The position numbers were made by a program, and so were the translations under genes. Positions 1-30,802 of a stretch of DNA of 64,000 bases are shown in pieces; within the stretch, counting starts at the first letter, position 1, and each line of letters starts with the position of its first letter. The stretch is taken from positions 20,290-84,289 of the forward strand of contig DAIRUS010000001.1 of the NCBI GenBank assembly GCA_036803205.1, given 5' to 3'. The notes under the pieces are model-generated. The model ran no database searches. It was given only the letters and a program-made list of their open reading frames with translations, and was not told the origin of the DNA. Origin of the DNA: a bacterium. Lineage in GTDB: Bacteria > Patescibacteriota > Minisyncoccia > Minisyncoccales > GBS-2.

Positions 1-44
1 AAACTAATGAATTAAGAAAAAAAATCCTTCCAATTAAAGAAAGA

Positions 45-1166
45 ATGGCTAAGCTTTCTTTTGCCTTAAAAATGATGAAAGATTGTCCTTTTGACTCTAT
101 CTTCAGTCGCGATGTTTTCGTTTTTACCACCGATTATCTTCAGAAAAAAGCTCCCGGGGTAAGCTGGCAGGTCTCGCGGGTTCCTTTATTTGAAGGTATT
201 AAGAACCCGAGAAGTAATAGTTTTGTTGATTTCTATTGTCCAAAAACCGGCTTCTACTATCTTTCTCCTTCTCCGGACCAAACAGTTGAGGAAATAGTTA
301 AGTTTTGGGGGGTGTCGGATCTTTCGGAACTTAGTCAGATTATTGGAGGTTGGGAGGAAATATTTACCGAGGCTGAACAGGCAACTTCAGTTTCGCCAGA
401 ATATCAGTTAAATATCAGTTGTCCTTTTTCTATTCCTTTCGGAGAGATGATGGAAAAGTTTTTAGAAATATTAGGAGAAATAATAAAGCAGTTAGAAGGT
501 ATTGTTGATTCTCCCTCAATTCTTCCTCCTAAAATTAACGATTACTATCAACTTACTTTCGAATGCAAGCCAGAGAATTGTTCTCCTTTTTGTCGCTGCG
601 TTTCTGACTGTACTTGCCGGTGTTCTTGTACGGGCAGTTCCTGTCCTCTAATGCTTATAATCCAGTCAGCTCTGATTCACTTTGATTTTTCTGGAATAAA
701 AGATAGAATTAAAAAAATCAATTTTAGCCAGATAGAAAAATGGTTAAATGATTGGGAAAAAATAGAAAAGGAGGTGAGAAAAAGAGAAACACCATTAACA
801 AAACAAGGGATTGAAAACCTTTATCAAAAATTTCCCAATTCGCCAGAAATAGTGGCTTTTGAAATTATGGCTTCAAGAATGCACTATTGTTTAGCTCATG
901 CCATGGAGGTAGAAGCAGGCTGGATGTTATCACCCTGTGATGAATACAAGGAAGGGTGTCTAGCGCCAGATGGGAAAAAAGTTGAAAGTATAGAAGATTG
1001 TAAATGTGAAAAATCGCAAGAATGCAGAAATTCTTATCCAGTCCTCCATTCCTATAAATGTGAATATTTAGCGCCAGCTTTTTGGTTAGCTAAGCTTTTT
1101 AAGTTTGATACTGACAAATGCCATCTCTTCAATTATTTTTGTTGCCGACCATTTGAAAGAAAATGA
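45..1166 (+). CDS. Cys-rich hypothetical protein, first gene of a four-gene co-directional cluster; reading frame is open to the window edge, so the gene may be 5'-partial
   Basis: ORF with no stop between window position 3 and the ATG at 45. Cys-rich segment CSPFCRCVSDCTCRCSCTGSSC. ATGA overlap with the next gene (1163). No recognisable catalytic motif. Confidence 0.5.
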   Translation: MAKLSFALKMMKDCPFDSIFSRDVFVFTTDYLQKKAPGVSWQVSRVPLFEGIKNPRSNSFVDFYCPKTGFYYLSPSPDQTVEEIVKFWGVSDLSELSQIIGGWEEIFTEAEQATSVSPEYQLNISCPFSIPFGEMMEKFLEILGEIIKQLEGIVDSPSILPPKINDYYQLTFECKPENCSPFCRCVSDCTCRCSCTGSSCPLMLIIQSALIHFDFSGIKDRIKKINFSQIEKWLNDWEKIEKEVRKRETPLTKQGIENLYQKFPNSPEIVAFEIMASRMHYCLAHAMEVEAGWMLSPCDEYKEGCLAPDGKKVESIEDCKCEKSQECRNSYPVLHSYKCEYLAPAFWLAKLFKFDTDKCHLFNYFCCRPFERK

Positions 1167-2221
1167 AAAAATATTTTTTTACAATTTTCTTAATCATCCT
1201 CTCACTTTTTCCTCTTTTAATTTTTTCCCGGGATTTAGAAGGGAGATACCCGAGAATTGGCGCTTTAACTCTTACCCCTGATGTTCACCCCATCGTTTAT
1301 GGCCAGTATCTTTTTAACTTTGCTCTGGCAGTGATAGGTATTTTTGCCTTCTTCTCTTTAGTTTGGGCAGGTTTTCAATATCTAACTTCTGCCGGAAATG
1401 TTGAGGTCAAAAGAGCGGCAAAAGAGAGAGTGAAAGCTACTTTTTTGACTTTAGCCATCCTTGCTTTCTCTTATTTAATTTTAACCACTTTTAGAAAAGA
1501 GTGGGAAAGAATGGCCTTAATTAGCCCCACTTTAGTAGGAACACCGCCTACTTATCCCACTTATCAATATACTGCTGACCCTTTACTTCATGTTCGCAAT
1601 ACCGCTAAAACAATGAAGGAAATAATAGAAAGTATTAAAGAAGAAAGTAATGATTTTAAAACCTTGCTTGACAATTGTACCTGTGGAAATCTTATTAACA
1701 TTTGTAGTTTTGCTCCAGGTTGTAAAAATGTTGGTTGTGCCGGCGATCCCTGCCCTAATCGCCAAGACATTGAAGAAGAGCAAATAAAACTCAGGTTAAA
1801 ATTAGAAGAGCTTCTTTTTTATCACCGGCTTTTAGTCGATGCTACTACTAAAAAAAATTTGACGGCTGCTTTATGGGGACGTCAGCCAACTCCTCAAATT
1901 GAAAATCAACTCGAAGCTCTTAGGAATTTGGTAGCCAAATTAGAAAACCCTATAAGTAAACTTCGACCCTTAATTCCAGATTATACAAATCTGGCTAATG
2001 AGTGTGAAATTGAAGATCATTGTGAAGGCCAATGCCATACGTTGGCAACAAACAGTATCACCAAATGTTCCCCCGCAACCGCTAATTGCTACTCAAAAAG
2101 TGGTACACCCCTTTGTCCTATGACAAAAGTAAATAATATAAATAGTAATATCAATAATTTGGCTGGGGAAATTGCCAATATCCTCAACGAAATCGAATCT
2201 TTTTCTCTTGGGTTTCAATAA
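1163..2221 (+). CDS. secreted/membrane Cys-rich protein with a VirB2/TrbC-pilin-like module (signal peptide + TM1-SAGN-loop-TM2) and a Cys-rich C-terminal domain
   Basis: N-terminal signal peptide MKKYFFTIFLIILSLFPLLIFS, then hydrophobic helix ...FQYLTSAGN, amphipathic loop VEVKRAAKERVKA, and second hydrophobic helix TFLTLAILAFSYLILTTF. Paralogous to modules in genes 2223-4202 and 4204-5745. The VirB2/TrbC assignment is inferred from architecture only. Confidence 0.55.
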   Translation: MKKYFFTIFLIILSLFPLLIFSRDLEGRYPRIGALTLTPDVHPIVYGQYLFNFALAVIGIFAFFSLVWAGFQYLTSAGNVEVKRAAKERVKATFLTLAILAFSYLILTTFRKEWERMALISPTLVGTPPTYPTYQYTADPLLHVRNTAKTMKEIIESIKEESNDFKTLLDNCTCGNLINICSFAPGCKNVGCAGDPCPNRQDIEEEQIKLRLKLEELLFYHRLLVDATTKKNLTAALWGRQPTPQIENQLEALRNLVAKLENPISKLRPLIPDYTNLANECEIEDHCEGQCHTLATNSITKCSPATANCYSKSGTPLCPMTKVNNINSNINNLAGEIANILNEIESFSLGFQ

Positions 2222-2222
2222 A

Positions 2223-4202
2223 ATGGGGAAGATAAATAAAAAAAAGCTTTCTTTTTTTCTTCTTTTTTTAGTTCCTTGGATAGCTTTGGCTCAGCCCAGC
2301 TTTGAAATTGACTATCCATTGATAACTGGATTTCCCACCCCAACTTTAGGAGGAAAAGTTTCGGCTCAAGATTTGGCTAATTATATCCAATATATTTTCT
2401 ATTTTGCCATTTTAGCTGGTATTATTTTGGCTCTGGTAATTTTAGTTTTAGGGGGTCTTCGCTATCTCTATTCAGCAGGAAATCCCCAGGTTCAATCCCA
2501 AGCCAGAAGCCAAATAACCAATGCTCTTGTTGGCCTTATTTTACTTTTAGTTTCTTATACCCTTCTCGTTACTATTCGACCCGAATTTGGCAAAGTGGTA
2601 CCGGTTCAACTGCGGGAAGCGAAAATAGTAGTTAATACCTTAAGAAGAGTAAGAAGAACTCTACCTTGGCGGGAAATAGTTGAACAGCTTGAACCATCAT
2701 TCGTTCCCCTGGAAGTAACCTATCCGACAGCCGGCGGATTTAGACCCGAGTTTATTCCTTTTACCACCCCGGCAGCTCCCCACCTTTATCCTTTGGAAAA
2801 ATTAGTTGCCCGCTATGGAAGATACCTTTATGATTTTAGTTTTATGGTTGGAGTTATCTTGGCTCTTCTTTTTATAATTATCGGCGGAATAAAACATTTA
2901 ACTGCTGCTGGAAACATTGCTCAGACTGCTGATGCCAGAGACCAAATTTTTTCTTCTCTTTTGGGCTTACTTTTACTCTTAGGTTCTTATCTCATTCTAA
3001 CTTCCTTTCGACCAGAATTTGCCACCATTGACCCGGCAGAATTAGAAGAAACAGAAATAGAAATAGAACCAGGGGTTTATCTTTGTACTCATCCAATGGA
3101 TAATAATATAAACAATGATTTAATGGCCAGGGTTTGTCGCTGTCGGGACTTAAAAACTTTATCTCAAACTTATGGAGGAGGCGAGTTTATAAATCAGTAT
3201 AATAAAGAATGTTTCTTCACAAAAAGACAAAAAAAAGAACTTTCTACCTTTATTTCCCTCAATTGTTTCTTAATTCAAAGTTCAGAAACCCTACCTCCGG
3301 AGTTAATTGGCGAACCGGTTGATATAAAGAAAGTAGAAGAAGAACTAGAAAAATTAAAAGAAAAAAAATTAATTAGCGATGATGAATACAACGAGATTGT
3401 TAATGGATGGAGAGAGTATAATGCGTCTCGATCAGTAGTAGCCTTTACTGCCCTTTATATTAATGGAAATTATGGAGTTATTTTGCACCAAGAAAAAGAT
3501 TTTAAAGGAAGAGGAGATATAATTATGAAACATGACTTCAAAAACGCGCTTCTTCACTTTTTTCCGGGAAACGAAAGTTTTATTAGATATAGCGATGGGA
3601 TTGTTCACAAGCTGAATACGAATTATTTTTATCGCCATGATCCAAAGACCATTAACCTTTCGTCTTTTAAGTCTGTGACTCTTTTTGAAGATAGGGTGGT
3701 AGATTGCGTCTTAAAAACACCGGCGAAAGATTTCTTTGTCGATATTTCAGATTGTCTTGAAATAAAAAATTTTGACGATGTTACATTTTTTTTCTATAAC
3801 GTTCCTGACTTTGGAACTCTGGAAGAAAAAGAGAAAAATCTTGGATATATTGTAATGCAGTGGGCTGAATTTTTCTCTACTACAGGCGGACGCGCAGCAT
3901 TACATACTCTAGCACGTGGTGGCCATGGAGGAAATGTTAACTTATTAACAGATCTGCTCCGAAACCCAATTTATTCTCTCAAACTGCCGGCAGAAGAAAG
4001 ATGGATTGTCGTGGTTGGAGCACATACGTCAAACCAAACAAATGTGCTGGCTCCTTTTTTCTCAAAACTTTATGTTTTAAATAAAAGTGAAAGAAACTTT
4101 GAGGCAACTTATGTCCGAAGTTTCTGTCAAAAAGGTGATCGGGAATATCCCTGTATTAGCCATTTTTTCGCTTATCCAGGGAAAATGGTTAGACAAAAGT
4201 AA
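2223..4202 (+). CDS. secreted Cys-rich protein carrying two tandem copies of the pilin-like module and a large C-terminal domain
   Basis: Signal peptide MGKINKKKLSFFLLFLVPWIALA|QP. Module 1: EIDYP...LRYLYSAGNPQVQSQARSQITNALVGLILLLVSYTLLVTIRPEF. Module 2: EVTYP...IKHLTAAGNIAQTADARDQIFSSLLGLLLLLGSYLILTSFRPEF. C-terminal GNYGVILHQEKDFKG...YPCISHFFAYPG matches the gene 4204-5745 C-terminus. Start taken at MGK, 1 nt after the upstream stop. Confidence 0.6.
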   Translation: MGKINKKKLSFFLLFLVPWIALAQPSFEIDYPLITGFPTPTLGGKVSAQDLANYIQYIFYFAILAGIILALVILVLGGLRYLYSAGNPQVQSQARSQITNALVGLILLLVSYTLLVTIRPEFGKVVPVQLREAKIVVNTLRRVRRTLPWREIVEQLEPSFVPLEVTYPTAGGFRPEFIPFTTPAAPHLYPLEKLVARYGRYLYDFSFMVGVILALLFIIIGGIKHLTAAGNIAQTADARDQIFSSLLGLLLLLGSYLILTSFRPEFATIDPAELEETEIEIEPGVYLCTHPMDNNINNDLMARVCRCRDLKTLSQTYGGGEFINQYNKECFFTKRQKKELSTFISLNCFLIQSSETLPPELIGEPVDIKKVEEELEKLKEKKLISDDEYNEIVNGWREYNASRSVVAFTALYINGNYGVILHQEKDFKGRGDIIMKHDFKNALLHFFPGNESFIRYSDGIVHKLNTNYFYRHDPKTINLSSFKSVTLFEDRVVDCVLKTPAKDFFVDISDCLEIKNFDDVTFFFYNVPDFGTLEEKEKNLGYIVMQWAEFFSTTGGRAALHTLARGGHGGNVNLLTDLLRNPIYSLKLPAEERWIVVVGAHTSNQTNVLAPFFSKLYVLNKSERNFEATYVRSFCQKGDREYPCISHFFAYPGKMVRQK

Positions 4203-4203
4203 A

Positions 4204-5745
4204 ATGAAAAAAATAATTTTAATTTTGTTTTTGATTTTACCCTGGGAAGTTTTTGCCCAAACTTTTCCTTTTGAGGTTACTTATCCGAGACTTGGACCAG
4301 TTACTCTTCCTTCTCCTCAAGTTGTAGTTGAAGACCCAGGTTATTACATCAGATACCTTTACCAGGCAGGAGTAATTGCTGGTGTTGTTCTTGCTCTTTT
4401 TTCTCTTGCTTTCGGTGGTTTTCTTTTTCTTTTTTCAGCCGGAAATGTTAGTCGACAAATAGAATCCAAAGATCGAATCGCTGGTGCTTTTGTCGGCCTT
4501 TTTCTTTTACTTTCTTCTTTTTTAATTTTGAGGACAATTAACCCTGAATTTACAAGATTCCAATTCAGAAGACCCCCATACCCTTTTACCGAAATTGAAG
4601 AAGGTGTCTGGCTTTGTCAGAAGGAAATTAAGGAAACTTACCAAATGAATAATATAGAACATACTTTGACTTTTGAAGCTTATATCGAATCAAGAAGATC
4701 TATAAGAGAGTATTGGTGGCCAAGCCTTGAGATAGAAGAACAAAAAGCCATTCATAATCTTTATTATAATGTCCATAGCAATTGCCATTTAATTTCTATT
4801 AGTCAAGAATTGCCAGAAAATTTTAGAAGAGCCAGACATGTCTATATTGTTGGAAATTATGGAATAGTTTTTCACCGTTTTCCAAACTTCAAAGGTCCCT
4901 ACAAATTAGTGGCGCTTGAGCGAAAGATGTATCTTGATTTGGATAAGAATATAAATCAAATTGAAAGTGGACCTCGACCTCTGTCTTACTTTGTTTTGCG
5001 TAATGAAGAAATTCCCAATTTTTCCGTGACCTTATTTAAAGACTTTAGATTAGATTATCTGGACTCCTTTGCTGTTGACAAGCGGTTATTACCTTTTCAG
5101 GAATATAGGGGAGAGTTCCCACGGCAAGGAACTATCACCTTTTATACTTTCCGAAACTTTCATGAAGATTTGCCTTCCAAATTCCAGAAGCCTGAGAGCA
5201 CTTGCCCTTCTTTCCGAGACCATCAAGGCTTTCCTCGAGAAACTCAAAAATGTTTTAAAACCTATGAGTTTAAAATCGAAAATTTCTTTGTTACCTTTAA
5301 CCAACAGCCCTTTACTGTTAAGATAGGTAATGATTCATTTATAGAAAATTTTTGGGTAGGCACTGTTTCTCTACATTATATTGGCACTATTGATGGTGGA
5401 AAAATTACCAACGGAGTTGAACTGGACAGCTGTTATTCTCTCAAGATTGATACCCCAGGAAAATACTATGAAGGTAAATCTTGGTGGATAGTAATTGTTA
5501 GAGGATATCCTCGGGAAGACTCTTCATCTCTACCTCTACCACCCGTCGACTTAAACATAGATTTGAGGATCTGGGCAATGCAACAACCTCACTTTTGGGG
5601 TGAAGCTTTTGATAAGAGCGACCGAAACCTTGAAGATAATTATGTTTCCTTTTTTTGCGAGGACAAAGCCAGACAAAAAAGATATCCCTGTGTTCACACA
5701 GCAATTGTTTTCCCTGGAAGAATAATTAAGGAAGTAGAAAGATAG
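4204..5745 (+). CDS. secreted Cys-rich protein with one pilin-like module, paralog of 2223-4202
   Basis: Signal peptide MKKIILILFLILPWEVFA|QT. Module: EVTYP...FLFLFSAGNVSRQIESKDRIAGAFVGLFLLLSSFLILRTINPEF, followed by EIEEGVWLC. C-terminal GNYGIVFHRFPNFKG...YPCVHTAIVFPG is paralogous to the previous gene. Start at MKK, 1 nt after the upstream stop. Confidence 0.6.
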   Translation: MKKIILILFLILPWEVFAQTFPFEVTYPRLGPVTLPSPQVVVEDPGYYIRYLYQAGVIAGVVLALFSLAFGGFLFLFSAGNVSRQIESKDRIAGAFVGLFLLLSSFLILRTINPEFTRFQFRRPPYPFTEIEEGVWLCQKEIKETYQMNNIEHTLTFEAYIESRRSIREYWWPSLEIEEQKAIHNLYYNVHSNCHLISISQELPENFRRARHVYIVGNYGIVFHRFPNFKGPYKLVALERKMYLDLDKNINQIESGPRPLSYFVLRNEEIPNFSVTLFKDFRLDYLDSFAVDKRLLPFQEYRGEFPRQGTITFYTFRNFHEDLPSKFQKPESTCPSFRDHQGFPRETQKCFKTYEFKIENFFVTFNQQPFTVKIGNDSFIENFWVGTVSLHYIGTIDGGKITNGVELDSCYSLKIDTPGKYYEGKSWWIVIVRGYPREDSSSLPLPPVDLNIDLRIWAMQQPHFWGEAFDKSDRNLEDNYVSFFCEDKARQKRYPCVHTAIVFPGRIIKEVER

Positions 5746-5746
5746 T

Positions 5747-6238
5747 TTAAGGATAGGGTCTGATGATGACCTTTCTTTCTGGTTCTTTTCCAGTGCTTTG
5801 GGTGGTAACATCTCCTCTGCCGGCTAATTCCAAATGAATGATTCTTCTTTCATAAGCTGGCATCGGTGGCAAAACTTTTTCTTTTTTGGTTAAAGCTACT
5901 TCGTCGGCTAAACTTTTGGCTAAATCTTTTAAGTATTTAATTTTTTTCTTTTTATAATCATTAATATCCAAATCAATATAAAAAACTTCTTTCTCTCCAA
6001 AAAGAGAAGTTACATTGAAGGACTGACGTCTCCTTTTCAAAATCGCCTTGAGAAGGTGTTGAATTTCCAGCAGCGTTTGTCCACCCTCTCCAATTAAAAG
6101 CTGGGAGTCATCACTGGTCAGATTAATCGGTAAAGTTAAATCTTTAGGAAGACCTATCTCAATTTTTACCTCAAAGCCCATTTTTTGGAAAAATTCGCTA
6201 ACAATTTTTTTTATTTCTTCTAGATTTTGAGTCTTCAT
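5747..6238 (-). CDS. jag: Jag/KhpB RNA-binding protein (KH + R3H domains)
   Basis: KH-like N-terminus and R3H-like ERRIIHLELAGRGDVTTQSTGKEPERKVIIRP. Canonical position downstream of yidC. Confidence 0.75.
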   Translation of the reverse strand: MKTQNLEEIKKIVSEFFQKMGFEVKIEIGLPKDLTLPINLTSDDSQLLIGEGGQTLLEIQHLLKAILKRRRQSFNVTSLFGEKEVFYIDLDINDYKKKKIKYLKDLAKSLADEVALTKKEKVLPPMPAYERRIIHLELAGRGDVTTQSTGKEPERKVIIRPYP

Positions 6239-6981
6239 GTTTTTAAAATAAGTTTTTGCTGAATAATGGAATAAAGCGAGCTAACCGACCAATAAAGGGC
6301 AATGGCTGATGGCAATTGAATTAAGATGAAAAAAGAAAAAAAGATTAAAAAATAAGTCATTTGTTTTTGAAATAACTGGGGAAAATTTTTTGAACCAGCT
6401 TCTTTTTTCATTTTTGGTTGAGCGGTCCGCATTTGGAGAAAAGACAAAACGGTTGCCAAAATTATCAAAGGAAAAACTGGCCAATAATAGGTTATTTGGC
6501 TTTCAACGGTTAGACTAAAGGATTTAGAAAGGTCTAAAATCCCTAAAAAGAAGGGGGAAATAGTGGTTGGTTTTGGAACAAAATGATAAAGATTTTTTAG
6601 TTCTAGCTCGGCCAAGCCATTACCAAAGGCTCTTAAAACCAAAAAAAGGGCAATCATTACCGGTATTTGAATCAGAGGAAATAAAAATCCACCAAAGGGG
6701 TTGACTTTTTTCTCTCGCCAAAGTTTAAGCGTTTCTTGAACTTGTTTTTCTTTGTCGCCATTATATTTCTTTTGAATTTCCTGAAGTTGAGGCTGAATTT
6801 CTTGTATTGCCTTCTGAATCTTTAAAGAACGAGTCACAAAAGGATGTAAAATAAGCCTGATAAGAAGGGTTAAAAAAATAATCGCTATTCCCAAATCATG
6901 GCCGGGTAAAAACTGGACAAATAAAATCAAAAGATTAAAGATGGGCCGATAGAATATTGTATTAAAAATTTCTCCAATCAT
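6235..6981 (-). CDS. yidC: membrane protein insertase YidC (short form)
   Basis: Polytopic protein with YidC/Oxa1-like core (PFGGFLFPLIQIPVMIALFLVLR). Lies within rnpA-yidC-jag synteny. Confidence 0.8.
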   Translation of the reverse strand: MIGEIFNTIFYRPIFNLLILFVQFLPGHDLGIAIIFLTLLIRLILHPFVTRSLKIQKAIQEIQPQLQEIQKKYNGDKEKQVQETLKLWREKKVNPFGGFLFPLIQIPVMIALFLVLRAFGNGLAELELKNLYHFVPKPTTISPFFLGILDLSKSFSLTVESQITYYWPVFPLIILATVLSFLQMRTAQPKMKKEAGSKNFPQLFQKQMTYFLIFFSFFILIQLPSAIALYWSVSSLYSIIQQKLILKT

Positions 6982-7313
6982 AGATTAATTTTTTTAAAGA
7001 AATTACTAATTATCTCTTTTATTTCCAAAAATTTTTGATTTTCAATTCCGGGAAGGGCAATGAAAATAGCGTCTATTCCTTTTTTAAAACCCTTTATTTC
7101 TCCCCTGACTGCTTCCGTCATTCTCCTTTTAATTTTATTGCGCAAAACCGCCTTTTTGGAAATTTTTTGAGAGACGATAAAGCCAAATCGGCTATAACCT
7201 AAATTATTTGATAGAAACTTAATAATTAAAAACTTTTCTTTAAAACTTTTTCCTTCTTTAAAGATCTTTTCAAAATCTTTTTTCTTTTTCAATCGATTCT
7301 TCTTTGCTAACAT
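6978..7313 (-). CDS. rnpA: ribonuclease P protein component
   Basis: Basic 111-aa protein, LAKKNRLKKKKDFEKIF...RNKIKRRMTEAVR. Located downstream of rpmH. Confidence 0.8.
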   Translation of the reverse strand: MLAKKNRLKKKKDFEKIFKEGKSFKEKFLIIKFLSNNLGYSRFGFIVSQKISKKAVLRNKIKRRMTEAVRGEIKGFKKGIDAIFIALPGIENQKFLEIKEIISNFFKKINL

Positions 7314-7323
7314 TTTTAGGAGC

Positions 7324-7458
7324 TCAAACTGTTAACCGCCAACGACCTTTCTTTTTTCGACGCAGTAAAACTTTCCTTCCACCAGAAGTAAGCTTTCTTT
7401 TTCTGAAGCCGTGAGTTTTTTTTCTTTTTCTCTTTTTCGGACGATAAGTAATTGACAT
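7324..7458 (-). CDS. rpmH: 50S ribosomal protein L34 (44 aa), absent from the ORF track because it is under 60 aa
   Basis: Manual minus-strand translation gives [44 protein letters not shown], then TGA. This is the canonical L34 sequence and C-terminus, upstream of rnpA. Confidence 0.9.
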
Positions 7459-7491
7459 ATCATCTATTTTACTCCGTCAAAATATTTAAGT

Positions 7492-7500
7492 CAATCCACA
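7492..7500. promoter_or_regulatory. weak DnaA-box-like 9-mer (CAATCCACA, 7/9 to TTATCCACA) in the AT-rich rpmH/dnaA divergent intergenic region
   Basis: Direct sequence match. The region 7459-7604 is AT-rich and lies between rpmH and dnaA. Confidence 0.3.
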
Positions 7501-7604
7501 ATTTTTACCCAGTTTATTAACAAAATTTAGCTTTTTGGCTGTCTTTACTTCTTCTTGACTTTATAATATGATATATAAAGTATTCTTAATTTGGGCTCAC
7601 TCAT

Positions 7605-8960
7605 ATGACCAAAGAAGAACTCTGGCAAGCAGTTTTAGCCCAGATTCAACTAACTATTTCTCCGGCTAATTTTGCTACCTGGTTTAAAGACACGGCAATT
7701 GTTTCCCTTCAAGACGGAGTGGCTTTTATCTCTGTTCCAAATTCTTTCGTTAAAGAATGGCTTGAACAAAAATATAACAAAACTATTTTCAAAATTCTTC
7801 ACAGTTTAGATGAAGGAATTAAAGAGATAAAATACGATTTGGGTAAACCCCGACCAAAAATAATTAAAAAAAGTTTTCCCGTCTTGCCAGAAGAAGGTCA
7901 GTTAGAATTTCCCGAATTTAAAGTTGACAAAGAAACAAATCTTAACCCAAGATATACTTTCGATAATTTTATTGTTGGACCGTGTAATGAATTAGCTCAG
8001 GCTGCCGCCTGGGCTGTCTCCCAAAATCCTGGCCAGATTTACAATCCTCTTTTTATTTACGGTGGAGTTGGCTTAGGAAAAACTCATTTGCTCCAAGCAA
8101 TTGGCAATGAAATAGTTAAAAAATTAAATCAAAGAAAAGTTAGATATGTCCAAACAGAAAAATTTATTTCCAATGTCATTTCAGCCATCCGCAACCACCA
8201 AATCGAACAACTTAAGGCACTATATCAACCGATTGACGTTCTTATTATTGATGATATTCAATTTTTAGCCGGAAAAGAAAAAACTCAAGAAGAGTTTTTT
8301 TATATCTTTAATTCTCTCTATGAAAAAAACAAACAAATCGTTCTTTCTTCCGACCGTTCTCCAAAAGCCATTCCAGCTTTAACCGAAAGGCTAAGGTCTC
8401 GGTTTGAAGGAGGAATGATTGCCGATATTACTTTTCCCGATTTTGAAACCAGGATGGCTATTTTAAAAGCAAAGTGTCAAGAAAGAAAAGGTGAATTTTC
8501 CGATGAAATATTAAATTATATTGCCTCAAATATTCAAAGGAATATTAGAAAATTAGAAGGGGCTTTAAACATTTTACTTGCCCACCGAAAACTTCAAGGA
8601 GATTCGCCCAACCTAGAAACAGCCAAGTCATTACTGAAAGACCTCGTCTTATCTCCAGTAAGAGTTATTAATCCAAAAGAAGTCGTCAGGGCAGTGGCTG
8701 ATTTCTATGATTTAAAGGAAAAAGATCTATTTTCTTCCTCTCGAAAAAAAGAAATTGTCAAACCAAGGCAAATAGCTATGTATCTATTAAGGGAAGAATT
8801 AAAAAACTCTTTCCCTTTTATTGGAAGAAAGTTCGGTGGAAAAGACCACACTACCGCCATTCATGCCTATGAAAAAATCTCCAAAGAAATAGAAAAAAAC
8901 GAAAACCTTCGCGAGGAAATTGCCTTAATTAAACAAAGATTTATTAGTGGAGAAATTTAA
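7605..8960 (+). CDS. dnaA: chromosomal replication initiator protein DnaA
   Basis: AAA+ Walker A GGVGLGKTHLLQAIGNE, Walker B LIIDDIQFL, C-terminal DNA-binding domain. 451 aa. Confidence 0.95.
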   Translation: MTKEELWQAVLAQIQLTISPANFATWFKDTAIVSLQDGVAFISVPNSFVKEWLEQKYNKTIFKILHSLDEGIKEIKYDLGKPRPKIIKKSFPVLPEEGQLEFPEFKVDKETNLNPRYTFDNFIVGPCNELAQAAAWAVSQNPGQIYNPLFIYGGVGLGKTHLLQAIGNEIVKKLNQRKVRYVQTEKFISNVISAIRNHQIEQLKALYQPIDVLIIDDIQFLAGKEKTQEEFFYIFNSLYEKNKQIVLSSDRSPKAIPALTERLRSRFEGGMIADITFPDFETRMAILKAKCQERKGEFSDEILNYIASNIQRNIRKLEGALNILLAHRKLQGDSPNLETAKSLLKDLVLSPVRVINPKEVVRAVADFYDLKEKDLFSSSRKKEIVKPRQIAMYLLREELKNSFPFIGRKFGGKDHTTAIHAYEKISKEIEKNENLREEIALIKQRFISGEI

Positions 8961-9010
8961 AAAAAACAGTGGAAAAAAAGGGTAAAAATATTGGCCGCAA
9001 ATTTCCTAAC

Positions 9011-9043
9011 TTATCAACACTTAATTTCCTTAATTTATCCACA
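9011..9043. promoter_or_regulatory. two DnaA boxes in the dnaA-dnaN intergenic region, candidate oriC element
   Basis: TTATCAACA at 9011-9019 and perfect consensus TTATCCACA at 9035-9043, in the same orientation, within the AT-rich spacer 8961-9108. Confidence 0.7.
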
Positions 9044-9108
9044 CTTTTGTTGGTGTTAAAACAACGTATTTCTCTTAATTTTGTCAAAAACAACAACAAT
9101 TAAACTAT

Positions 9109-10233
9109 ATGAAATTAACAATTCTAAAAGATGTAATGAAAAAAGGTATAGAGGTTGTCGAAAAAATAACTCAAAAAAATCTTACGCTACCTATTCTTCA
9201 AACAACCATTTTTCAAACAGAAAAAAATTTTTTAACTCTCTCATCTACTAATTTAGAAACAGGAGTTATTTGGTGGGGTTTAGCCAGGATAGAAAAAGAA
9301 GGAAAAATTTGTCTACCAACCAAAGTTTTATCTCAACTTATTAGTTTTGTACCGCAAAAATCTATCTCTTTATTTAAAGAAAACTTATCTCTCTGGGTTG
9401 AATGCGAAAATTATAAAACCGAGATTATCGGATTAGACGCGGAAGAATTTCCAATTATTCCAAAAATTCAAACTGAAAATTCCATTTTGGTTGATACCTC
9501 TCTTTTTTGTCAATCTCTTTCTCAAGTTGTTAAAATTCCTTCTCCTTCTACTGCTCGACCGGAAATTTCCGGAGTTCTTTTGAATTTTCAAGAAAATATA
9601 ATCAAAATTGCCGCCACTGATAGTTTCCGTTTAGCCGAGAAAAAATTGTTTTTACCAAACCCTTTTCCTCAAAAACACTCTTTGATTTTACCCCAGAATT
9701 CAGTTAGAGAAATAATTGGCATTTTTGGAGAGTTGGAAGGAGAAATGCGAATTTATATTTCTCCAAAACAAATATGGTTTGAGTCTCTAATGTCGGAAAT
9801 TTCCCACCCTCAAATTCAGTATACTTCTCGTTTGATTGAAGGGGAATATCCAAATTACGAAGAAATTACTCCTAAAAAATTTGGAACCACTGTTTCTCTC
9901 TCAAAAGAGAAATTATTGAACCAGATTAAAACCGCCAGTCTTTTCAGTGGTAAAAACAATGAAATCATAATGAAAATTGACCCAAAAAATGAAACGATAA
10001 CAATCTTAAGTCAAAGTCCTAATTTAGGAAAATACGAAGGTTCTCTTGCCGGAAAGATTAAAGGAGAAAAAGTAGAAATTGCTTTTAACCACCGTTTTTT
10101 AATAGATGGAATTTTAGAAATAAAAAGTCCGGAATTAACCCTTAATCTAACTAATGAAGAAGGTCCAGCCGTTTTAAGACCAGTTGATCTGGAAGATTAT
10201 TTCTATATTCTAATGCCGATTAAAACTATTTAA
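9109..10233 (+). CDS. dnaN: DNA polymerase III beta sliding clamp
   Basis: 374 aa with three-domain clamp architecture, immediately downstream of dnaA. N-terminus MKLTILKDVMKKGIEVVEKI is typical of DnaN. Confidence 0.85.
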   Translation: MKLTILKDVMKKGIEVVEKITQKNLTLPILQTTIFQTEKNFLTLSSTNLETGVIWWGLARIEKEGKICLPTKVLSQLISFVPQKSISLFKENLSLWVECENYKTEIIGLDAEEFPIIPKIQTENSILVDTSLFCQSLSQVVKIPSPSTARPEISGVLLNFQENIIKIAATDSFRLAEKKLFLPNPFPQKHSLILPQNSVREIIGIFGELEGEMRIYISPKQIWFESLMSEISHPQIQYTSRLIEGEYPNYEEITPKKFGTTVSLSKEKLLNQIKTASLFSGKNNEIIMKIDPKNETITILSQSPNLGKYEGSLAGKIKGEKVEIAFNHRFLIDGILEIKSPELTLNLTNEEGPAVLRPVDLEDYFYILMPIKTI

Positions 10234-10238
10234 TTTAT

Positions 10239-12155
10239 TTATTCTGGTTTTAAGAAACTTTCTTTTGGATACTTTGGTAGGACTTGCACTAAAAAATCGT
10301 GAAAAATTGGACCAGCCACCATCATTCCCGGCTGTTTTTTAATTGGCTCATTGTTATTATTTCCTACCCAAATGCCAACAACGATTGAAGGGGTATAACC
10401 AATTGTCCAGGCGTCACGGTAATCTTGACTTGTTCCGGTTTTTACCGCAACTTGATAACCTTCAAAATAAAGCGGGGAGCGAGGACCAAACATCGCTGCC
10501 CGGGCTTCATTGTCTGAGAGAACGTCATTAAGTAATCTAACAGCATTTTTCCCCAAAATTCTTAGTTCGGTTTTTTTATTTTCTTCAAGAATATTACCTT
10601 GAGAATCTTCAATTTTCAAAATGGCAGTGGTTGGTACCTTTAATCCATCATTAGCAAAAACTCCATAAGCTGAAGTCATTTCCAAAAGCTTTACCTCCCA
10701 ACCACCGAGAACAATTGATGGGCCGAAAGGTGGTTTAAGTGTGGTGATACCACAAGCTTGAGCTGTTTCTACGCTTTCTTTCAACCCCGCTAAATAAAGT
10801 AAAACTTTAACTGAGGGAATGTTCAGAGACTGAGCCAAGGCTTCTCTTAAGGTAACTGGGCCTCGGAACTTCCCATCGTAATTTTGGGGAATATATTCTT
10901 TACCGCCCCAGACTCCAAAGTTGGTTAGTTCATCAACGACTACTTTTTTGTCATCATAGCCTTTTTGAAAGGCGGTCACATAAACAAAAGGTTTGAAAGC
11001 CGATCCTGGTTGACGACCCAAATACCCTTCTACCCCGGTGATAACGTTAAATTTTGGATCAAATAAACAATTAACTCCGGCTTGACAACCTTCAGGATAA
11101 GGTTGGGCATAATAATCTCCCGTTCCTATTGTCATTGCCAAAATTTCTCCGGTTTTGGCTGAAATAGCAACTAAAGCCGCGTTATGAGCATTGGCAACCT
11201 TATTTCTTTCAAGCCCCTTTTTGACCACTTCTTCAGCTATTTTTTGTAGCTCCCAATCTAAAGAGGTATAAACCATTAATCCCTTTCGTTCTAAAAATTC
11301 CCGACCATACTTTTTTTCCAATAACTCTTTAACCCATAAAGTGAAATAAGGAGCTTTAAGCTCAACCCTTTTTTCGACAAACTTTATTTCCTCTTTTTTT
11401 GCCTCATCAGCTTTTTCCGGACTTAAATAACCTTTAACTACCATTCGATCTAAAACATAATCTTTTCGCGCCAAAAGCTCTTTTTTTCCGTTTTCGTCAT
11501 AGGGAGAAAGACGATAAGGTGCTTTAATCAAAGAAGCCAAGGTTGCTGCTTCGGCTAAAGAGATTTCCGATACGGATTTTTTAAAATAGGTTTGACTTGC
11601 CTCTTCTACTCCATAGGCATTTTGACCGAATGGTATTTGATTTAAATACCATTCTAAAATTTGATCTTTTGAGTAGCGACGGTCCAGTTCTAAAGCCAAG
11701 ACAATTTCCCTAGTCTTTCTTTGGGCGGTTTTTTCGGCTGATAAAAAAGTTGACCTCACTAACTGTTGAGGGATGGTGGAGCCTCCATAAATTGGCTTTC
11801 CTATCTTTAAATCTTCTAAAATTGCTCTCGCAATTCCTTTCCAATCAATTCCAAAATGAGAATAGAAATTAGCATCTTCAGCCACTATCACCGCCTGTTT
11901 TAAATATTCAGGGATTTCTTCTAAAAGAACCCAGGTTCTTTTTTCTTCGCCATAAACTTCATATAAAATAACTTTTCCCGTTCGGTCGTAAATTTTAGTT
12001 GATTGAGCTAATTGTCTTTCGCTAAATATTTCCGGCCGGGGAAAATCTTTGACATAATAAAAAAATAAAAAAAGAGGTCCGCAAATAAAAAGGAAAAAGA
12101 GCCCCCCTAAAATTTTAAAAATCAAGCTAATTTTATTCTTTTTTTTCTTTGTCAT
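10239..12155 (-). CDS. class A penicillin-binding protein (glycosyltransferase + transpeptidase), PBP1A-like
   Basis: N-terminal TM anchor. GT51 motifs (EDANFYSHFGID, GGSTIPQQL). Transpeptidase SAFKP (SxxK) and KTGT motifs. Confidence 0.85.
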   Translation of the reverse strand: MTKKKKNKISLIFKILGGLFFLFICGPLFLFFYYVKDFPRPEIFSERQLAQSTKIYDRTGKVILYEVYGEEKRTWVLLEEIPEYLKQAVIVAEDANFYSHFGIDWKGIARAILEDLKIGKPIYGGSTIPQQLVRSTFLSAEKTAQRKTREIVLALELDRRYSKDQILEWYLNQIPFGQNAYGVEEASQTYFKKSVSEISLAEAATLASLIKAPYRLSPYDENGKKELLARKDYVLDRMVVKGYLSPEKADEAKKEEIKFVEKRVELKAPYFTLWVKELLEKKYGREFLERKGLMVYTSLDWELQKIAEEVVKKGLERNKVANAHNAALVAISAKTGEILAMTIGTGDYYAQPYPEGCQAGVNCLFDPKFNVITGVEGYLGRQPGSAFKPFVYVTAFQKGYDDKKVVVDELTNFGVWGGKEYIPQNYDGKFRGPVTLREALAQSLNIPSVKVLLYLAGLKESVETAQACGITTLKPPFGPSIVLGGWEVKLLEMTSAYGVFANDGLKVPTTAILKIEDSQGNILEENKKTELRILGKNAVRLLNDVLSDNEARAAMFGPRSPLYFEGYQVAVKTGTSQDYRDAWTIGYTPSIVVGIWVGNNNNEPIKKQPGMMVAGPIFHDFLVQVLPKYPKESFLKPE

Positions 12156-14876: not shown

Positions 14877-15965
14877 TTAATCTATTTTTCTTCGGTAATC
14901 AAATTTCTTTTTGAGAAGTAGAATTGTTAATCCAGAGAAAGCAGCAGTGGTTAGAGCGGGAAGAAAAACAAAAAGAAATTTTGACATTTTTTCTTTTAAA
15001 TCTTCTTGTCCAAAAGGGGTAATGACTGTTGCCAGCTCTTTTTTGTCCGATTCTATTTTTAGAAAAGCCAACTCAGGGTCAACCCAGGCCAATCCTTGTT
15101 TTTTAATTTCTTCCAGTTTCCTTTCTCCAAGTCCTTTTACTCGGGTTAACTCATCTAAAGAGTGAAATGGTCTGGCGCTGATTATTCTTTGAGCCAATAC
15201 TTTACCGATGCCGACTAGCTTCTGGAGTTCTTTTGCCGAGGCAGTGTTTATATCTATTTTGAGAGGTTCGACTATATTCGGGTTAACGGTTGTTTTCGAG
15301 GGGATGAATTGTTCTTGGGGGCGGGATGTTTCCTCGTTAGGTTGAAGAGGCTCTACCTTAGACTCTGATTGGGATTTTTCTTGGAATGATTGAGAAGGAG
15401 GGGTTAATTCAAAATCATTAGCATTATTATTTGTATCCTGATAAAGTCCGGCTATTTTTTTTCTTTCTAATTTTTGATTAGGGCCAGGATTTTCCGGAAA
15501 AGAGTTTCCTTCAAAAAGAAGGTTGTCGAAATCGCCCCAGCCAACAGCGTCAATAATTCGACCGGTGTTTTCTTGCCCCAATCTTAAAGCCACGCCATTA
15601 TTTGGAGCAATAGTTTGGGAGGTTGAAGTCTCGACATTGGAGAGAGCTGTATAATCTTTATTTGTCCAGAGATAATATCCTTTGGCCGGAATTTTAGCGT
15701 TTGGTTCTTTTGACCAGGATTTGATAGTATAATCTTTAGCGCTAGTTTTTGTCCTTTTGACCAATCTGATATAGCTGCCTTGATAATTCCCAAGATAGAT
15801 ATCAGAGTTAGTAGGATTGTAAATTTTTATAAAATCGTCAGAAGTTTTTTCTCCGGCAATTTGAACTTCAACAATTAAAAGCTCGGTGGCTAAAGCTAAT
15901 TTTAGAGGAATTAAAGAGATAAATCCCACCGTTAAGAAAACGTTTATTCTTGACAAATTTCTCAT
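14877..15965 (-). CDS. ComEA-like helix-hairpin-helix DNA-binding protein fused to an N-terminal lamin-tail (LTD) domain, with a C-terminal TM helix
   Basis: HhH pair INTASAKELQKLVGIGKVLAQRI...LTRVKGLGERKLEEIK. LTD-like LLIVEVQIAGEKTSDDFIKIYNP...GYYLW. N-terminal signal/TM and C-terminal hydrophobic tail. Confidence 0.65.
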   Translation of the reverse strand: MRNLSRINVFLTVGFISLIPLKLALATELLIVEVQIAGEKTSDDFIKIYNPTNSDIYLGNYQGSYIRLVKRTKTSAKDYTIKSWSKEPNAKIPAKGYYLWTNKDYTALSNVETSTSQTIAPNNGVALRLGQENTGRIIDAVGWGDFDNLLFEGNSFPENPGPNQKLERKKIAGLYQDTNNNANDFELTPPSQSFQEKSQSESKVEPLQPNEETSRPQEQFIPSKTTVNPNIVEPLKIDINTASAKELQKLVGIGKVLAQRIISARPFHSLDELTRVKGLGERKLEEIKKQGLAWVDPELAFLKIESDKKELATVITPFGQEDLKEKMSKFLFVFLPALTTAAFSGLTILLLKKKFDYRRKID

Positions 15966-16107: not shown

Positions 16108-17406
16108 TTATTCAGCAGTCACCCTTTCTATTTCCTCGAAAGTTGTTTTTCCTTCTAAAACTTTAATATATCCATCGAGATGCATTTCGACCATTCCTTT
16201 TTTTATTGCCAGCTCCTTCAAATCGACAATTGAAGGGTTGGTTAAAATAAACCTTTCCATCTCGTCATCGACAACAAAGACTTCAAAAATACCCATCCTT
16301 CCTTTGTAACCGGTAAAATTACAACTTCGACAACCCTTAGTCACAGGAACTTTCATCCATGACCTTAGCTCTTTGACTTTCACGTTTTTAGGAAGACCCT
16401 TAAATGCCTCTTGTAATTTAGTCAAGCGTTCAGACGAAATTAGCTGGAATTGGACGCATTCTTTGCAGACCTTTCTGACTAACCTTTGACCAATAACTAA
16501 ATTTAAGGCGGGAGCGATATTACTTAGTTTTTCTCCTAAAGATTGTAAGCGAGCGACCGTGCCAGCGGCATCATTGGTATGCACGGTGGTAAGGACCAAA
16601 TGACCGGTTAAGGCTGCTTGGAAAGAGATTTGAGCGGTTTCAGAATCGCGGATTTCTCCGACTAAAATAACATCTGGGTCTTGTCTGACAACCGCTCTTA
16701 GGGCATTAGCGAAAGTGTAGCCTTTTGATTCGTCAACTTGACTCTGAGAAACTCCTTTTAAGTGATATTCGATGGGGTCCTCGATAGTGATGATTTTAAT
16801 TTCTGGAGAAGTTAGTTTTTGAAGAAAAGCATAAAGGGTGGTGGTTTTTCCTGAACCAGTCGGACCAGTACAGATAATCATTCCGGTGGGTTTTTTTAGT
16901 TCCTCATAAAAAACTTTCAGCATATCTTCTCTTAAATCAAGGTCTTCCATGCTCACTACCCACTTTGGGTTTAGAATTCTCATTACTATTGCTTCTCCAT
17001 ATTCAGAGGGGAGAGAGGAGGTTCTGATTTCAATCGAGGTATCTTCAATTAAAAGAGAAAAACGACCATCTTGAGGCCGGTTGGTTATATTGAGTTTTAA
17101 ACCGGAGAGAAGTTTCAAACGGGAAAGCAAAGCTTGATAAACAGCAAGGTCTAACAATAAAACATCATGCAAAACTCCGTCAATTCGGATGCGTAAAAGA
17201 ACATTTTCTTTTTTTGGCTCTAGATGGATATCGGAAGCGTCAAGGTAGAGAGTGCCGATTAGGAGGATTTCAACTAAGCCGGTTATTTCTCCGGAGAGAA
17301 GTCTTTCAATTTCTTTCTTGAAATCTAAGATACATTTTATTTTTTCTTTGGCGACCAAAGTTTTTTCCGGTGAAATTTTGACTTGGCCGGTGAGTTTTTC
17401 TCTCAT
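16108..17406 (-). CDS. type II/IV secretion-family ATPase (PilB/GspE/ComGA-like)
   Basis: Walker A ICTGPTGSGKTTTLYAF. Asp box, His box and C-terminal tetracysteine (CKEC...CRSC) typical of PilB/GspE. Adjacent to ComEA-like. Confidence 0.8.
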   Translation of the reverse strand: MREKLTGQVKISPEKTLVAKEKIKCILDFKKEIERLLSGEITGLVEILLIGTLYLDASDIHLEPKKENVLLRIRIDGVLHDVLLLDLAVYQALLSRLKLLSGLKLNITNRPQDGRFSLLIEDTSIEIRTSSLPSEYGEAIVMRILNPKWVVSMEDLDLREDMLKVFYEELKKPTGMIICTGPTGSGKTTTLYAFLQKLTSPEIKIITIEDPIEYHLKGVSQSQVDESKGYTFANALRAVVRQDPDVILVGEIRDSETAQISFQAALTGHLVLTTVHTNDAAGTVARLQSLGEKLSNIAPALNLVIGQRLVRKVCKECVQFQLISSERLTKLQEAFKGLPKNVKVKELRSWMKVPVTKGCRSCNFTGYKGRMGIFEVFVVDDEMERFILTNPSIVDLKELAIKKGMVEMHLDGYIKVLEGKTTFEEIERVTAE

Positions 17407-19046: not shown

Positions 19047-19688
19047 ATGAAAAAAATAAATAAGCATAAATTTATGACCAATAACCAAATTAATCAGGAG
19101 GAACTTCAGAGATTGCTTGAGCTTCCGGGCAAAGTCAGGGGACAGGTGTTTATAACTGATTTCAAATATATCAAAGAGAAAGAAGGAAAGAGAGGGCTAG
19201 AGATTTTAAAAAAAAGAATGGAAAAATTGGGAAACCCAATTGATTACGAAAGGATAAAAACATTTGATTGGTATCCAGTCGGCCTGAGGGCCGTTTCTTT
19301 GTTGGTTATTAAAGAAACCTTTGGTTTTAGAGAGAAAGAGATTTCTGTAATGGGGAATTCAGCCCCAAAATATTCTTTCATTGTTAAATTGATAATGAAA
19401 TATTTTTTTTCTCTCCACAAAGTTTTTCAAGAGTCCCCAAAGTATTGGAAAAAGCATTATAACGTCGGTGAGCTAGAGACAGTGGAACTTAACGAAAAAG
19501 AAAAATATCTTATTGTCCGTTTAAAAGATTTTAAAGTCCACCCCATTTTATGTAATTACTTATTTGAAGATGGTTATTTTTTAAGACTCGCTCAATATGT
19601 CTTAGAAAGTCCAAACATTACCTCAAGAGAGACTAAGTGTATGTTTAAGGACGACCCCTATCATGAGTGCTTAATAAAGTGGGAATAA
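19047..19688 (+). CDS. V4R-like (4-vinyl-reductase-type) small-molecule-binding domain protein, paralog A
   Basis: C-terminal pattern ELETVELNEKEKYLIVRLKDF...CNYLFEDGYF...ETKCMFKDDPYHECLIKW fits V4R-like G.LE.VE...V...C.f..GY...ETkC..G...C.F (judged from memory). Paralogous to the next gene. Confidence 0.4.
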   Translation: MKKINKHKFMTNNQINQEELQRLLELPGKVRGQVFITDFKYIKEKEGKRGLEILKKRMEKLGNPIDYERIKTFDWYPVGLRAVSLLVIKETFGFREKEISVMGNSAPKYSFIVKLIMKYFFSLHKVFQESPKYWKKHYNVGELETVELNEKEKYLIVRLKDFKVHPILCNYLFEDGYFLRLAQYVLESPNITSRETKCMFKDDPYHECLIKWE

Positions 19689-19691
19689 ATT

Positions 19692-20297
19692 ATGGTCGAC
19701 CCAAAAGAGGAATTTGGAAAATTAAATTTGGAAGCAATTAAAGGCGAGGTAATTGGTCTGGCCCTAGAAAACCATTTTAAATTTATTCTCGAAAAATACG
19801 GTCCAGAGGAAGTAAAGAGGCTTGAGGAAGGTTTGGCAAAATTGGGATATTCTCTTAAACACCAAGAGATAGAAAATTTTAAGTGGTATCCAAGAAAAAT
19901 AGACGAAGCTATCTATTTTGTGCTGAAAAAGATGCTTAACTGGGAAGACGAGATTTTCAGAGAAAGTGGAAAACTAGGAGCAAAAATTTCTTATATTACC
20001 CGGGTTATGATGCGTTATTTTGTTTCGTTAGAACGGATTTTTCAAGAAGTGGGCAACTATTGGCGAAAATACTACACCGTTGGTCATTTAAAGCCAGTGG
20101 AACTTAGCCTTAAAGAAAGATATTTTATTCTGGAGTTAGAAGATTTTCCAATCGTCTGCTCCGAACACTGTCGGTATTGGGAGGGGTATTTTTGGCAAAT
20201 TACCTCTCATGTTTTACCAAAAGAAAATTTAAAACTATGGGAAACAGGCTGTCCTCTTAAAGGAGCCAAGGTCCATCGTTTTAAAGCTACTTGGTAA
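19692..20297 (+). CDS. V4R-like domain protein, paralog B
   Basis: YWRKYYTVGHLKPVELSLKERYFILELEDFPIVCSEHCRYWEGYF...ETGCPLKGAKVHRFKATW aligns with paralog A. Confidence 0.4.
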   Translation: MVDPKEEFGKLNLEAIKGEVIGLALENHFKFILEKYGPEEVKRLEEGLAKLGYSLKHQEIENFKWYPRKIDEAIYFVLKKMLNWEDEIFRESGKLGAKISYITRVMMRYFVSLERIFQEVGNYWRKYYTVGHLKPVELSLKERYFILELEDFPIVCSEHCRYWEGYFWQITSHVLPKENLKLWETGCPLKGAKVHRFKATW

Positions 20298-20309
20298 TTT
20301 TTTATTGGA

Positions 20310-20891: not shown

Positions 20892-20900
20892 ATCGTTTTT

Positions 20901-21704: not shown

Positions 21705-21712
21705 TCATCTAA

Positions 21713-23781: not shown

Positions 23782-23966
23782 GAATTTACGATTAATACTT
23801 TATTGCTATTAACTGTTAGTCGAGAAATAAAAATGATAGAATTAAAAAAAAGAATTAAAGAATCAGAAGAAAAATTAAAAAACAAATAGAAAAAATCATT
23901 ATTTTATCTTTTTGTCAAATTTTCCAAAAAGGTCGGGCTAAACTTTAAACTTTTTTAAATCAAAAT

Positions 23967-25058: not shown

Positions 25059-25073
25059 TTTTTAAATGAAAAG

Positions 25074-27383: not shown

Positions 27384-27393
27384 AAACGAAACC

Positions 27394-30800: not shown

Positions 30801-30802
30801 AA

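Follow-up and report, generated by a model that had tools for sequence, protein, structure and literature searches.

Pilin-module proteins with large conserved ectodomains encoded in a Patescibacterial type IV secretion operon beside dnaA

We analyzed four tandem genes, here named g1 to g4, that lie at the left end of a 64,000-nucleotide stretch of DNA (the window; positions 20,290 to 84,289 of contig DAIRUS010000001.1, assembly GCA_036803205.1) from a bacterium of the Patescibacteriota. An earlier note, made from the sequence alone, had described them as four genes for Cys-rich secreted proteins that share a two-helix module resembling VirB2/TrbC pilins and that are situated next to the replication origin. 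All four genes are on the + strand, with g1 at 45-1166 (cut by the window edge), g2 at 1163-2221, g3 at 2223-4202 and g4 at 4204-5745. As the note had said, they are co-directional and set 1-4 nt apart, since the listing of open reading frames (ORFs) gave a 4-nt overlap (ATGA) between g1 and g2 and gaps of 1 nt each between g2 and g3 and between g3 and g4. Our results showed that g1-g4 encode PF18895-type pilin-module proteins of a Patescibacterial type IV secretion system (T4SS) operon, and that these proteins carry large conserved ectodomains.

The g1 reading frame stays open up to the window edge, as far as base 3, and this 3' part of the gene (1..1166) encodes the C-terminal ~388 aa of a 649-aa protein, of which the signal peptide and the module lie outside the window; the portion within it contains neither of these, nor a transmembrane segment. 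The full-length orthologue is found in L001, a closely related, near-identical contig whose g2 and g4 proteins are 100% identical to those of the window. There it occupies 4984-6933 and encodes 649 aa, with a signal peptide, one module (…YLSSAGRIEQIVKAKKQIFGTFVGLILLLGSWLFLGLFRPEF) and 29 Cys residues. The claims that all four proteins share the module and begin with a signal peptide were thus borne out within the window for g2, g3 and g4, but for g1 only in the full-length L001 form.

The g2 protein (352 aa) is made up of a signal peptide (nt 1163-1228), a pilin-like module (about nt 1229-1498) and an ectodomain with 12 Cys (nt 1499-2218). In g3 (659 aa from its ATG), the signal peptide (nt 2223-2291) is followed by module a (nt 2292-2588), a linker, module b (nt 2700-3020) and an ectodomain (nt 3021-4199) that BLASTP aligned with that of g4 over the entire C-terminal domain. 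The g4 protein (513 aa) has a signal peptide (nt 4204-4257), a module (nt 4258-4551) and an ectodomain (nt 4552-5742) with a two-domain beta-gamma-crystallin-like core. The signal peptides of g2, g3 and g4 were recognized by eye as Sec-type N-termini (MKKYFFTIFLIILSLFPLLIFS; MGKINKKKLSFFLLFLVPWIALA; MKKIILILFLILPWEVFA), in which a K/R-rich start leads into a hydrophobic core and an A-x-A-like site, and the same three proteins contain paired, strongly hydrophobic 19-aa windows with Kyte-Doolittle values of 1.9-3.1. The description of the proteins as Cys-rich applies to g1 (5.9% Cys) and g2 (3.4%), but not to g3 and g4 (1.4%), in which the Cys residues are conserved. The locus and the 64-kb window as a whole contained no other module-bearing ORF and no gene for a small plain pilin.

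The motifs by which the module had been defined were recovered at the places given for them: E[VI][TD]YP at aa 28 and 164 of g3 and aa 24 of g4, xSAGN at aa 76 of g2, aa 84 of g3 and aa 78 of g4, and [RN]PEF at aa 119 and 263 of g3 and aa 113 of g4, as were two ectodomain motifs, GNYG (g3 aa 415, g4 aa 217) and YPC (g3 aa 642, g4 aa 494). The modules are true paralogues, with 35-41% identity across 84-106 aligned positions and BLASTP E-values of 5e-11 to 4e-16 between the proteins that carry them. The tandem arrangement in g3 was seen both with a hidden Markov model of the module, which found two domains, and with PF18895, which matched in two stretches. In an AlphaFold2 (AF2) model of g4, the module consists of helices at aa 45-77 and 82-112, with predicted local distance difference test (pLDDT) scores of 88-96, joined by the turn S78-A-G-N81. 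The 12-14 aa amphipathic loop that had been proposed between the helices was not upheld; in the model this stretch is the beginning of helix 2, and the real turn is the four residues S-A-G-N. A K/R-rich stretch follows the SAGN turn in all module copies. This segment, together with a cleaved signal peptide, leads to the prediction that both ends of the hairpin are outside the cell and that the turn is cytoplasmic. VirB2 and TraA propilins have the same topology, with both ends outside and the turn in the cytoplasm. With both hairpin ends outside, the large C-terminal domains would be extracellular, and the surface exposure proposed in the earlier note is plausible from this topology and from the conserved, even-numbered Cys residues.

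Profile comparisons placed the module among pilin-like proteins. PF18895 (T4SS_pilin; gathering cut-off 26.6 bits) matched g3 at 44.7 bits, in two stretches, and g2 at 26.8 bits, while g4 scored 18.6 bits and remained under the cut-off. Among relatives, the same profile matched 21 of 22 modules, and in a wider g4 family it matched 54 of the 66 members; precomputed PF18895 matches were present in four g1 orthologues. Furthermore, NF045849, the Mbov_0395 family of pilin-like conjugal transfer proteins, was matched at E<=0.01 by 19 of the 22 modules (best E 2.1e-9), although its cut-off of 40 bits was not reached by g3 (36.8), g2 (17.7) or g4 (11.6). By sequence profile, the modules and the NF045849 proteins are therefore related, the modules not being members of the family, and NF045849, a pilin-like family of Mycoplasma integrative and conjugative elements (ICEs; Mbov_0395, MMCAP2_0565), is the closest curated relative of the module outside PF18895. 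Both belong to conjugation-type systems of monoderms, but the NF045849 profile comprises 80 positions and has no ectodomain. This affinity fits poorly with the claim that monoderm T4SS classes lack VirB2 homologues, and the module may have come with monoderm machinery. When PDB sequences were searched with the module profile, the single match, to the transmembrane segment of a viral glycoprotein (E 0.038), was judged spurious.

The virB4 gene and other T4SS genes sit just past the left edge of the window and were read from the relatives L001, L005 and L008. In L001, g1 is immediately preceded, on its own strand and with little space in between, by genes for a 146-aa protein, PrgI, a TraC-like protein, an ATPase and a 109-aa membrane protein. 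PrgI (PF12666, VirB3-like) and the TraC-like protein (PF26593) were called in all three relatives, and the 204-aa TraC-like protein of L001 matches the N-terminal parts of VirB4 models and TrsD. The 589-aa P-loop ATPase (L001:2870-4639) scored 361.7 bits against NF045971, the NCBIfam model for VirB4-like conjugal transfer ATPases of the CD1110 family (cut-off 325), and 265.6 bits against the Mycoplasma ICE VirB4 model (Mbov_0397 family), under that model's cut-off of 590. L005, where g4 is 36% identical, and L008 have an operon of the same make-up that likewise ends at jag/yidC/rnpA/dnaA, and the run of genes from virB4 to g4 has overlaps or gaps of no more than ~20 nt in L001, L005 and L008, except at the L001 g3-g4 start call. 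The operon shared by these relatives identifies g1-g4 as the tail of a T4SS operon. Co-occurrence with VirB4, which the earlier note had named as a check, was thus found, with PrgI, TrsD-like and VirB4 genes directly upstream in all three contigs. Its remark that the genes match no operon that could be named has to be withdrawn, as they are the distal part of the published Patescibacterial T4SS (PMC10633639; PMC12102498).

These results bear on the possibility that g1-g4 are unrelated secreted proteins, in which the hairpin mimics a pilin and the position near virB4 and dnaA is incidental. Such proteins would accord with the score of g4 under the PF18895 cut-off and with the absence of a match to PF04956 (TrbC/VirB2). 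On the other hand, the genes run on from virB4 with tiny gaps or overlaps in L001, L005 and L008, and two independent curated families of pilin-like proteins were matched consistently, so that we find this explanation scarcely credible.

Several further T4SS-like genes were observed. The small membrane protein encoded between virB4 and g1 (L001 4658-4987) has 2-3 hydrophobic segments and no family match, and is a constant feature of L001, L003, L005 and L008, at 97-115 aa. In L004, the neighbor of a g4-like gene (1614-3560) encodes a polytopic membrane protein of ~648 aa whose C-terminal half is soluble, and a gene for a polytopic membrane protein adjoins the T4SS genes in L005 (1-929); both products are candidates for a divergent VirB6. 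Within the window, 30803-33265 (+) encodes another P-loop ATPase of T4SS type (820 aa), ~25 kb from the pilin genes; an ORF of 142 aa precedes it, the pair spanning 30372-33265 (+). TraD/VirD4 models matched this ATPase around Walker A only (aa 400-456), far under their cut-offs, and it may be a distant, divergent homologue of type IV coupling proteins such as has been described for some Patescibacteria (PMC12102498). No relaxase family turned up among the scanned ORFs of the window.

The g3 and g4 proteins have homologous C-terminal domains, and the g4 ectodomain was examined by modeling and profile searches. A first AF2 run on g4 with 12 close homologues gave a pLDDT of 56 and was unusable, which was mended by adding 54 distant relatives. 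In the resulting model, the ectodomain contains paired Greek-key domains that can be superposed on crystallins. Among the 66 sequences, the first Greek key has H, Y or F at position 224 in 66 of 66, F or Y at 229 in 60 and G231 in 65, and the second contains Y314-x4-F319; conserved Ser residues are found at S274 (61 of 66) and S412 (64 of 66). The domain therefore has, in both halves, the Y/F/H-x4-F-x-G signature and conserved Ser of beta-gamma-crystallins (gamma-S, beta-B3; flavollin, clostrillin, nitrollin). It differs from them in being fused to a membrane hairpin, in its large insertions, which include a helical pair at aa 157-193, and in its Ca2+-site motif, which is only partial (D-N-x-I-[GS]). 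A profile search of the PDB gave five marginal matches, three of which were flavollin, beta-B1 and beta-B2 crystallin (E 0.1-0.8). Since the Greek-key signature and the superposition are accompanied by non-significant Pfam and Foldseek results (below), the g3/g4 ectodomain is, on the model, a divergent beta-gamma-crystallin-like fold, as distinct from a member of that family.

The ectodomains of g1 and g2 are of another kind. Their first parts are alike (hhalign probability 99.8%) and include a C-x-C…C…C-x-GDPC cluster. In the alignment of the g1 family (A4), 20 Cys are invariant and 4 more are nearly so, and the g2 family has 6 invariant Cys. The g1 ectodomain is probably largely helical; a search of the PDB with the g1 family profile gave only weak, coiled-coil-type matches and was uninformative.

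The g4-family profile was searched against 1.84 billion cluster representatives and matched 16,939 proteins at E<=1e-3, of which 2,260 were at E<=1e-10. Many of the 150 best matches are ~400 aa long, with the alignment reaching well into the ectodomain. Among the best 145 representatives, a sample biased toward ectodomain-bearing proteins because the query contained the ectodomain, 132 have at least 100 aa past the last module (median 280 aa) and 26 contain 2-4 tandem modules; the number of Cys is even in 83% of the ectodomains of at least 100 aa in this sample.

All four paralogue types are represented by orthologues in relatives (36-66% identity), and their order is kept there. The short contig L003 carries the small membrane protein gene followed by g1-g4 in unchanged order, and g4 identity in order-keeping relatives is 51% and 36%. 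Mean pairwise identity is 56-64% for the hairpins and 40-55% for the ectodomains, with 30% in the C-terminal half of g2. In L008, a g3-like and a g4-like protein are fused (7788-10463; P0013, 891 aa), giving a polypeptide with three modules and two compact ectodomains of ~275 aa and without an internal signal peptide at the junction. The lack of an internal signal peptide supports hairpins with both ends outside, and the fusion itself suggests that g3 and g4 act in one assembly. Another protein, P0045 (916 aa), looks like this fusion. A scan of genome contigs found a g4-type protein in only two species representatives, which indicates that the exact four-gene set is lineage-restricted.

The pattern of conservation also bears on the idea that g1-g4 form a variation array, in which interchangeable pilin variants would serve antigenic or host-range change, as suggested for the multi-copy VirB2 arrays of Bartonella and Anaplasma. 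This idea has been proposed for arrays of 2-11 divergent pilin genes (PMC12102498), and the paralogous modules here do share just 35-41% identity. Against this, each protein has an architecture of its own and positional orthologues in L003, L005 and L008 (with identity as low as 36%), the ectodomains show no hypervariability, and a single protein can combine g3 with g4. We regard a variation array as very unlikely, and a recent expansion or variation cassette was rejected on the basis of conserved orthology, fixed order and ectodomain identities. The earlier note's wording, a "family-level expansion", is misleading in this respect, as the genes are four distinct orthologous components in a fixed order.

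Previously, T4SS genes (SEML1_0006-0019), including a series of pilin genes, were shown to be essential in S. epibionticum (Wang et al. 2023, PMC10633639). A survey of Patescibacteria found that their VirB4 clade is nested within MPF-FATA, the FATA class of mating-pair formation systems, and that VirB2-like pilins (PF04956/PF18895) are encoded near virB4 in 1,135 assemblies, and reported 441 arrays of 2-11 pilin genes each, chiefly in Microgenomatia and Saccharimonadia (Quinonero-Coronel et al. 2025, PMC12102498). The same study reported that TrsD and PrgI adjoin VirB4, that VirB6 is scarce in Microgenomatia and that the T4SS lies close to dnaA, dnaN, rnpA and rpmH, and a 2025 review raised the possibility of a pilus in these monoderms (PMC12857230). 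The locus, its pilin-like reading and its near-origin position had therefore already been described in 2023-2025 (PMC10633639; PMC12102498). The window agrees with these systems in having tandem PF18895 genes inside a PrgI/TrsD/VirB4 cluster of monoderm MPF-FATA descent, located beside dnaA, dnaN, rnpA and rpmH; no relaxase was seen nearby among the ORFs scanned. The proteins themselves differ. In the part of the S. epibionticum report available to us, the pilin genes SEML1_0017-0019 measure 381-417 nt, i.e. 126-138 aa, whereas the four proteins here have 352-659 aa (g1 649, g2 352, g3 659 and g4 513) with ectodomains, include one two-module protein and are accompanied by no small pilin; all four lie outside the about 125-190 aa typical of small stand-alone pilins such as the essential ones of S. 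epibionticum. Large fused ectodomains, tandem modules and a crystallin-like fold were not mentioned in the literature to which we had access, which was limited. The ectodomain fusions, tandem modules, fixed orthologous order, g3-g4 fusion and Mycoplasma ICE affinity go beyond what we found in those papers.

On this basis, we lean toward a reading in which g1-g4, the distal half of a Patescibacterial (Microgenomatia-like) T4SS operon, build a short heteromeric pilus- or stalk-like structure. The operon runs in the order PrgI/VirB3, TrsD-like, VirB4 ATPase, ~110-aa membrane protein, g1, g2, g3, g4, and abuts jag-yidC-rnpA-rpmH/dnaA-dnaN. Each product would be exported by Sec, lose its signal peptide and adopt a VirB2-type hairpin topology in the membrane, its two ends lying outside the cell; g3 would contribute two such hairpins in tandem. 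The K/R-rich segment past the SAGN turn would face the cytoplasm, and the large C-terminal domain would be extracellular, being Cys-rich in g1 and g2 and a crystallin-like double domain with conserved Cys in g3 and g4. The VirB4 machine would then extract the hairpins and assemble them into a short heteromeric structure, of which the hairpins would be the core, and from which the four kinds of ectodomain would project as a host-contact surface. The more specific proposal, that in this lineage the T4SS surface structure is made from a fixed set of four pilin-hairpin proteins instead of small pilins, one of the four being a covalent tandem of two hairpins, and that each displays its own large disulfide-bonded ectodomain, two of Cys-knot and two of crystallin-like type, is put forward only tentatively.

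Several points weigh against assembly into a pilus or stalk. A VirB2-type filament may have difficulty accommodating a domain of 240-390 aa on each of its subunits, a point reached by reasoning. The VirB2/TrbC resemblance put forward in the earlier note held for PF18895, which g2 and g3 match over its cut-off, but not for PF04956, which had no match at E<=1 in the four window proteins, and matched only 4 of the 66 relatives (best E 6.8e-6) and 1 of the 22 modules. In addition, hhalign of the module profile with A. tumefaciens VirB2 and F TraA gave a probability below 1%, in what was a weak test. The module thus resembles VirB2, TrbC and TraA of diderm T4SSs in its signal peptide, two hydrophobic helices, short basic connection and co-encoded VirB4, but differs from them in these searches and in that they are proteins of ~70-120 aa without an ectodomain in diderm cells, whereas the host here is a monoderm. 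A VirB6 homologue was found neither in the window nor in the 21.5 kb of L001 that was searched, including with the 648-aa protein of L004 as a query. Finally, no Pfam crystallin domain matched in the window proteins or the 66 relatives, Foldseek of the ectodomain against the PDB gave nothing at E<0.1, and AF2 modeling covered g4 alone.

Alternatively, a hairpin of pilin ancestry might merely anchor stationary, T4SS-associated surface proteins without forming a filament. Such proteins may be adhesins, cell-envelope spacers or stand-ins for a VirB6-, VirB8- or VirB5-type channel, stalk or tip. The large ectodomains of 240-390 aa fit this view, as do the scarcity of VirB6 in Microgenomatia (PMC12102498) and its absence from the window, the usual reliance of Gram-positive T4SSs on surface adhesins instead of pili (PMC12102498), and the conservation of the ectodomains (40-55%), which is near that of the hairpins (56-64%), as for structural parts. 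However, the hairpin is the most conserved and widespread part of these proteins (16,939 cluster representatives at E<=1e-3), simple anchoring has no need of tandem hairpins in single polypeptides, and in Saccharibacteria the small PF18895 pilins lack any ectodomain that would need an anchor. We consider anchoring alone to be possible but rather doubtful.

If the surface structure is indeed made from the fixed set of four proteins, g1-g4 would form a decorated, heteromeric, VirB4-driven host-contact organelle of a monoderm that has no described counterpart among T4SS pili, and the Mycoplasma ICE affinity of the module would imply an arrival together with the conjugation machinery of monoderms, as opposed to a loan from diderms. 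Among Patescibacteria, the T4SS is required for epibiotic growth in the single species in which this was examined. While published accounts, in the parts available to us, treat VirB2-like pilins as small pilins, the pilin hairpin in another large class is routinely fused to big conserved extracellular domains, here of four fixed types, which offer concrete candidates for the surface with which the machine touches a host. The crystallin-like domain, which on the model is possibly Ca2+-dependent, should be a foldable domain amenable to expression and binding assays. The fixed orthologous set also argues against simple antigenic variation as the cause of pilin arrays in this lineage.

The position next to the replication origin that the earlier note had reported was confirmed in terms of genes. 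Downstream of g4 and on the strand opposite to g1-g4 are jag (5747-6238), yidC (6235-6981), rnpA (6978-7313) and rpmH (7324-7458), beyond which lie dnaA (7605-8960) and dnaN (9109-10233). The sole perfect DnaA box of the window (TTATCCACA) is at 9035-9043 (+), in the dnaA-dnaN spacer, and a box with one mismatch is at 9011. DnaA-box counts in the window were no higher than in shuffles, so that the origin is placed here only approximately. Promoter- and terminator-like sites within 1-7700 were likewise no more frequent than in shuffles.

Farther along the window, a ComEA-like protein with LTD and HHH_3 domains is encoded at 14877-15965 (-) and a PilB/GspE-type ATPase (T2SSE, E 6e-113) at 16108-17406 (-). 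Both genes are within 10 kb of the T4SS genes, in a neighborhood that L005 shares, and they are consistent with the type IV pilus/competence machinery typical of Patescibacteria. Finally, a sensory block at 19047-27765 comprises two unannotated ORFs, a PAS protein, two solute-binding proteins, a HAMP protein, a dCache-HAMP histidine kinase and two stand-alone response-regulator receiver proteins, and is unusually rich in signaling genes for what is presumably a small genome of the candidate phyla radiation (CPR).

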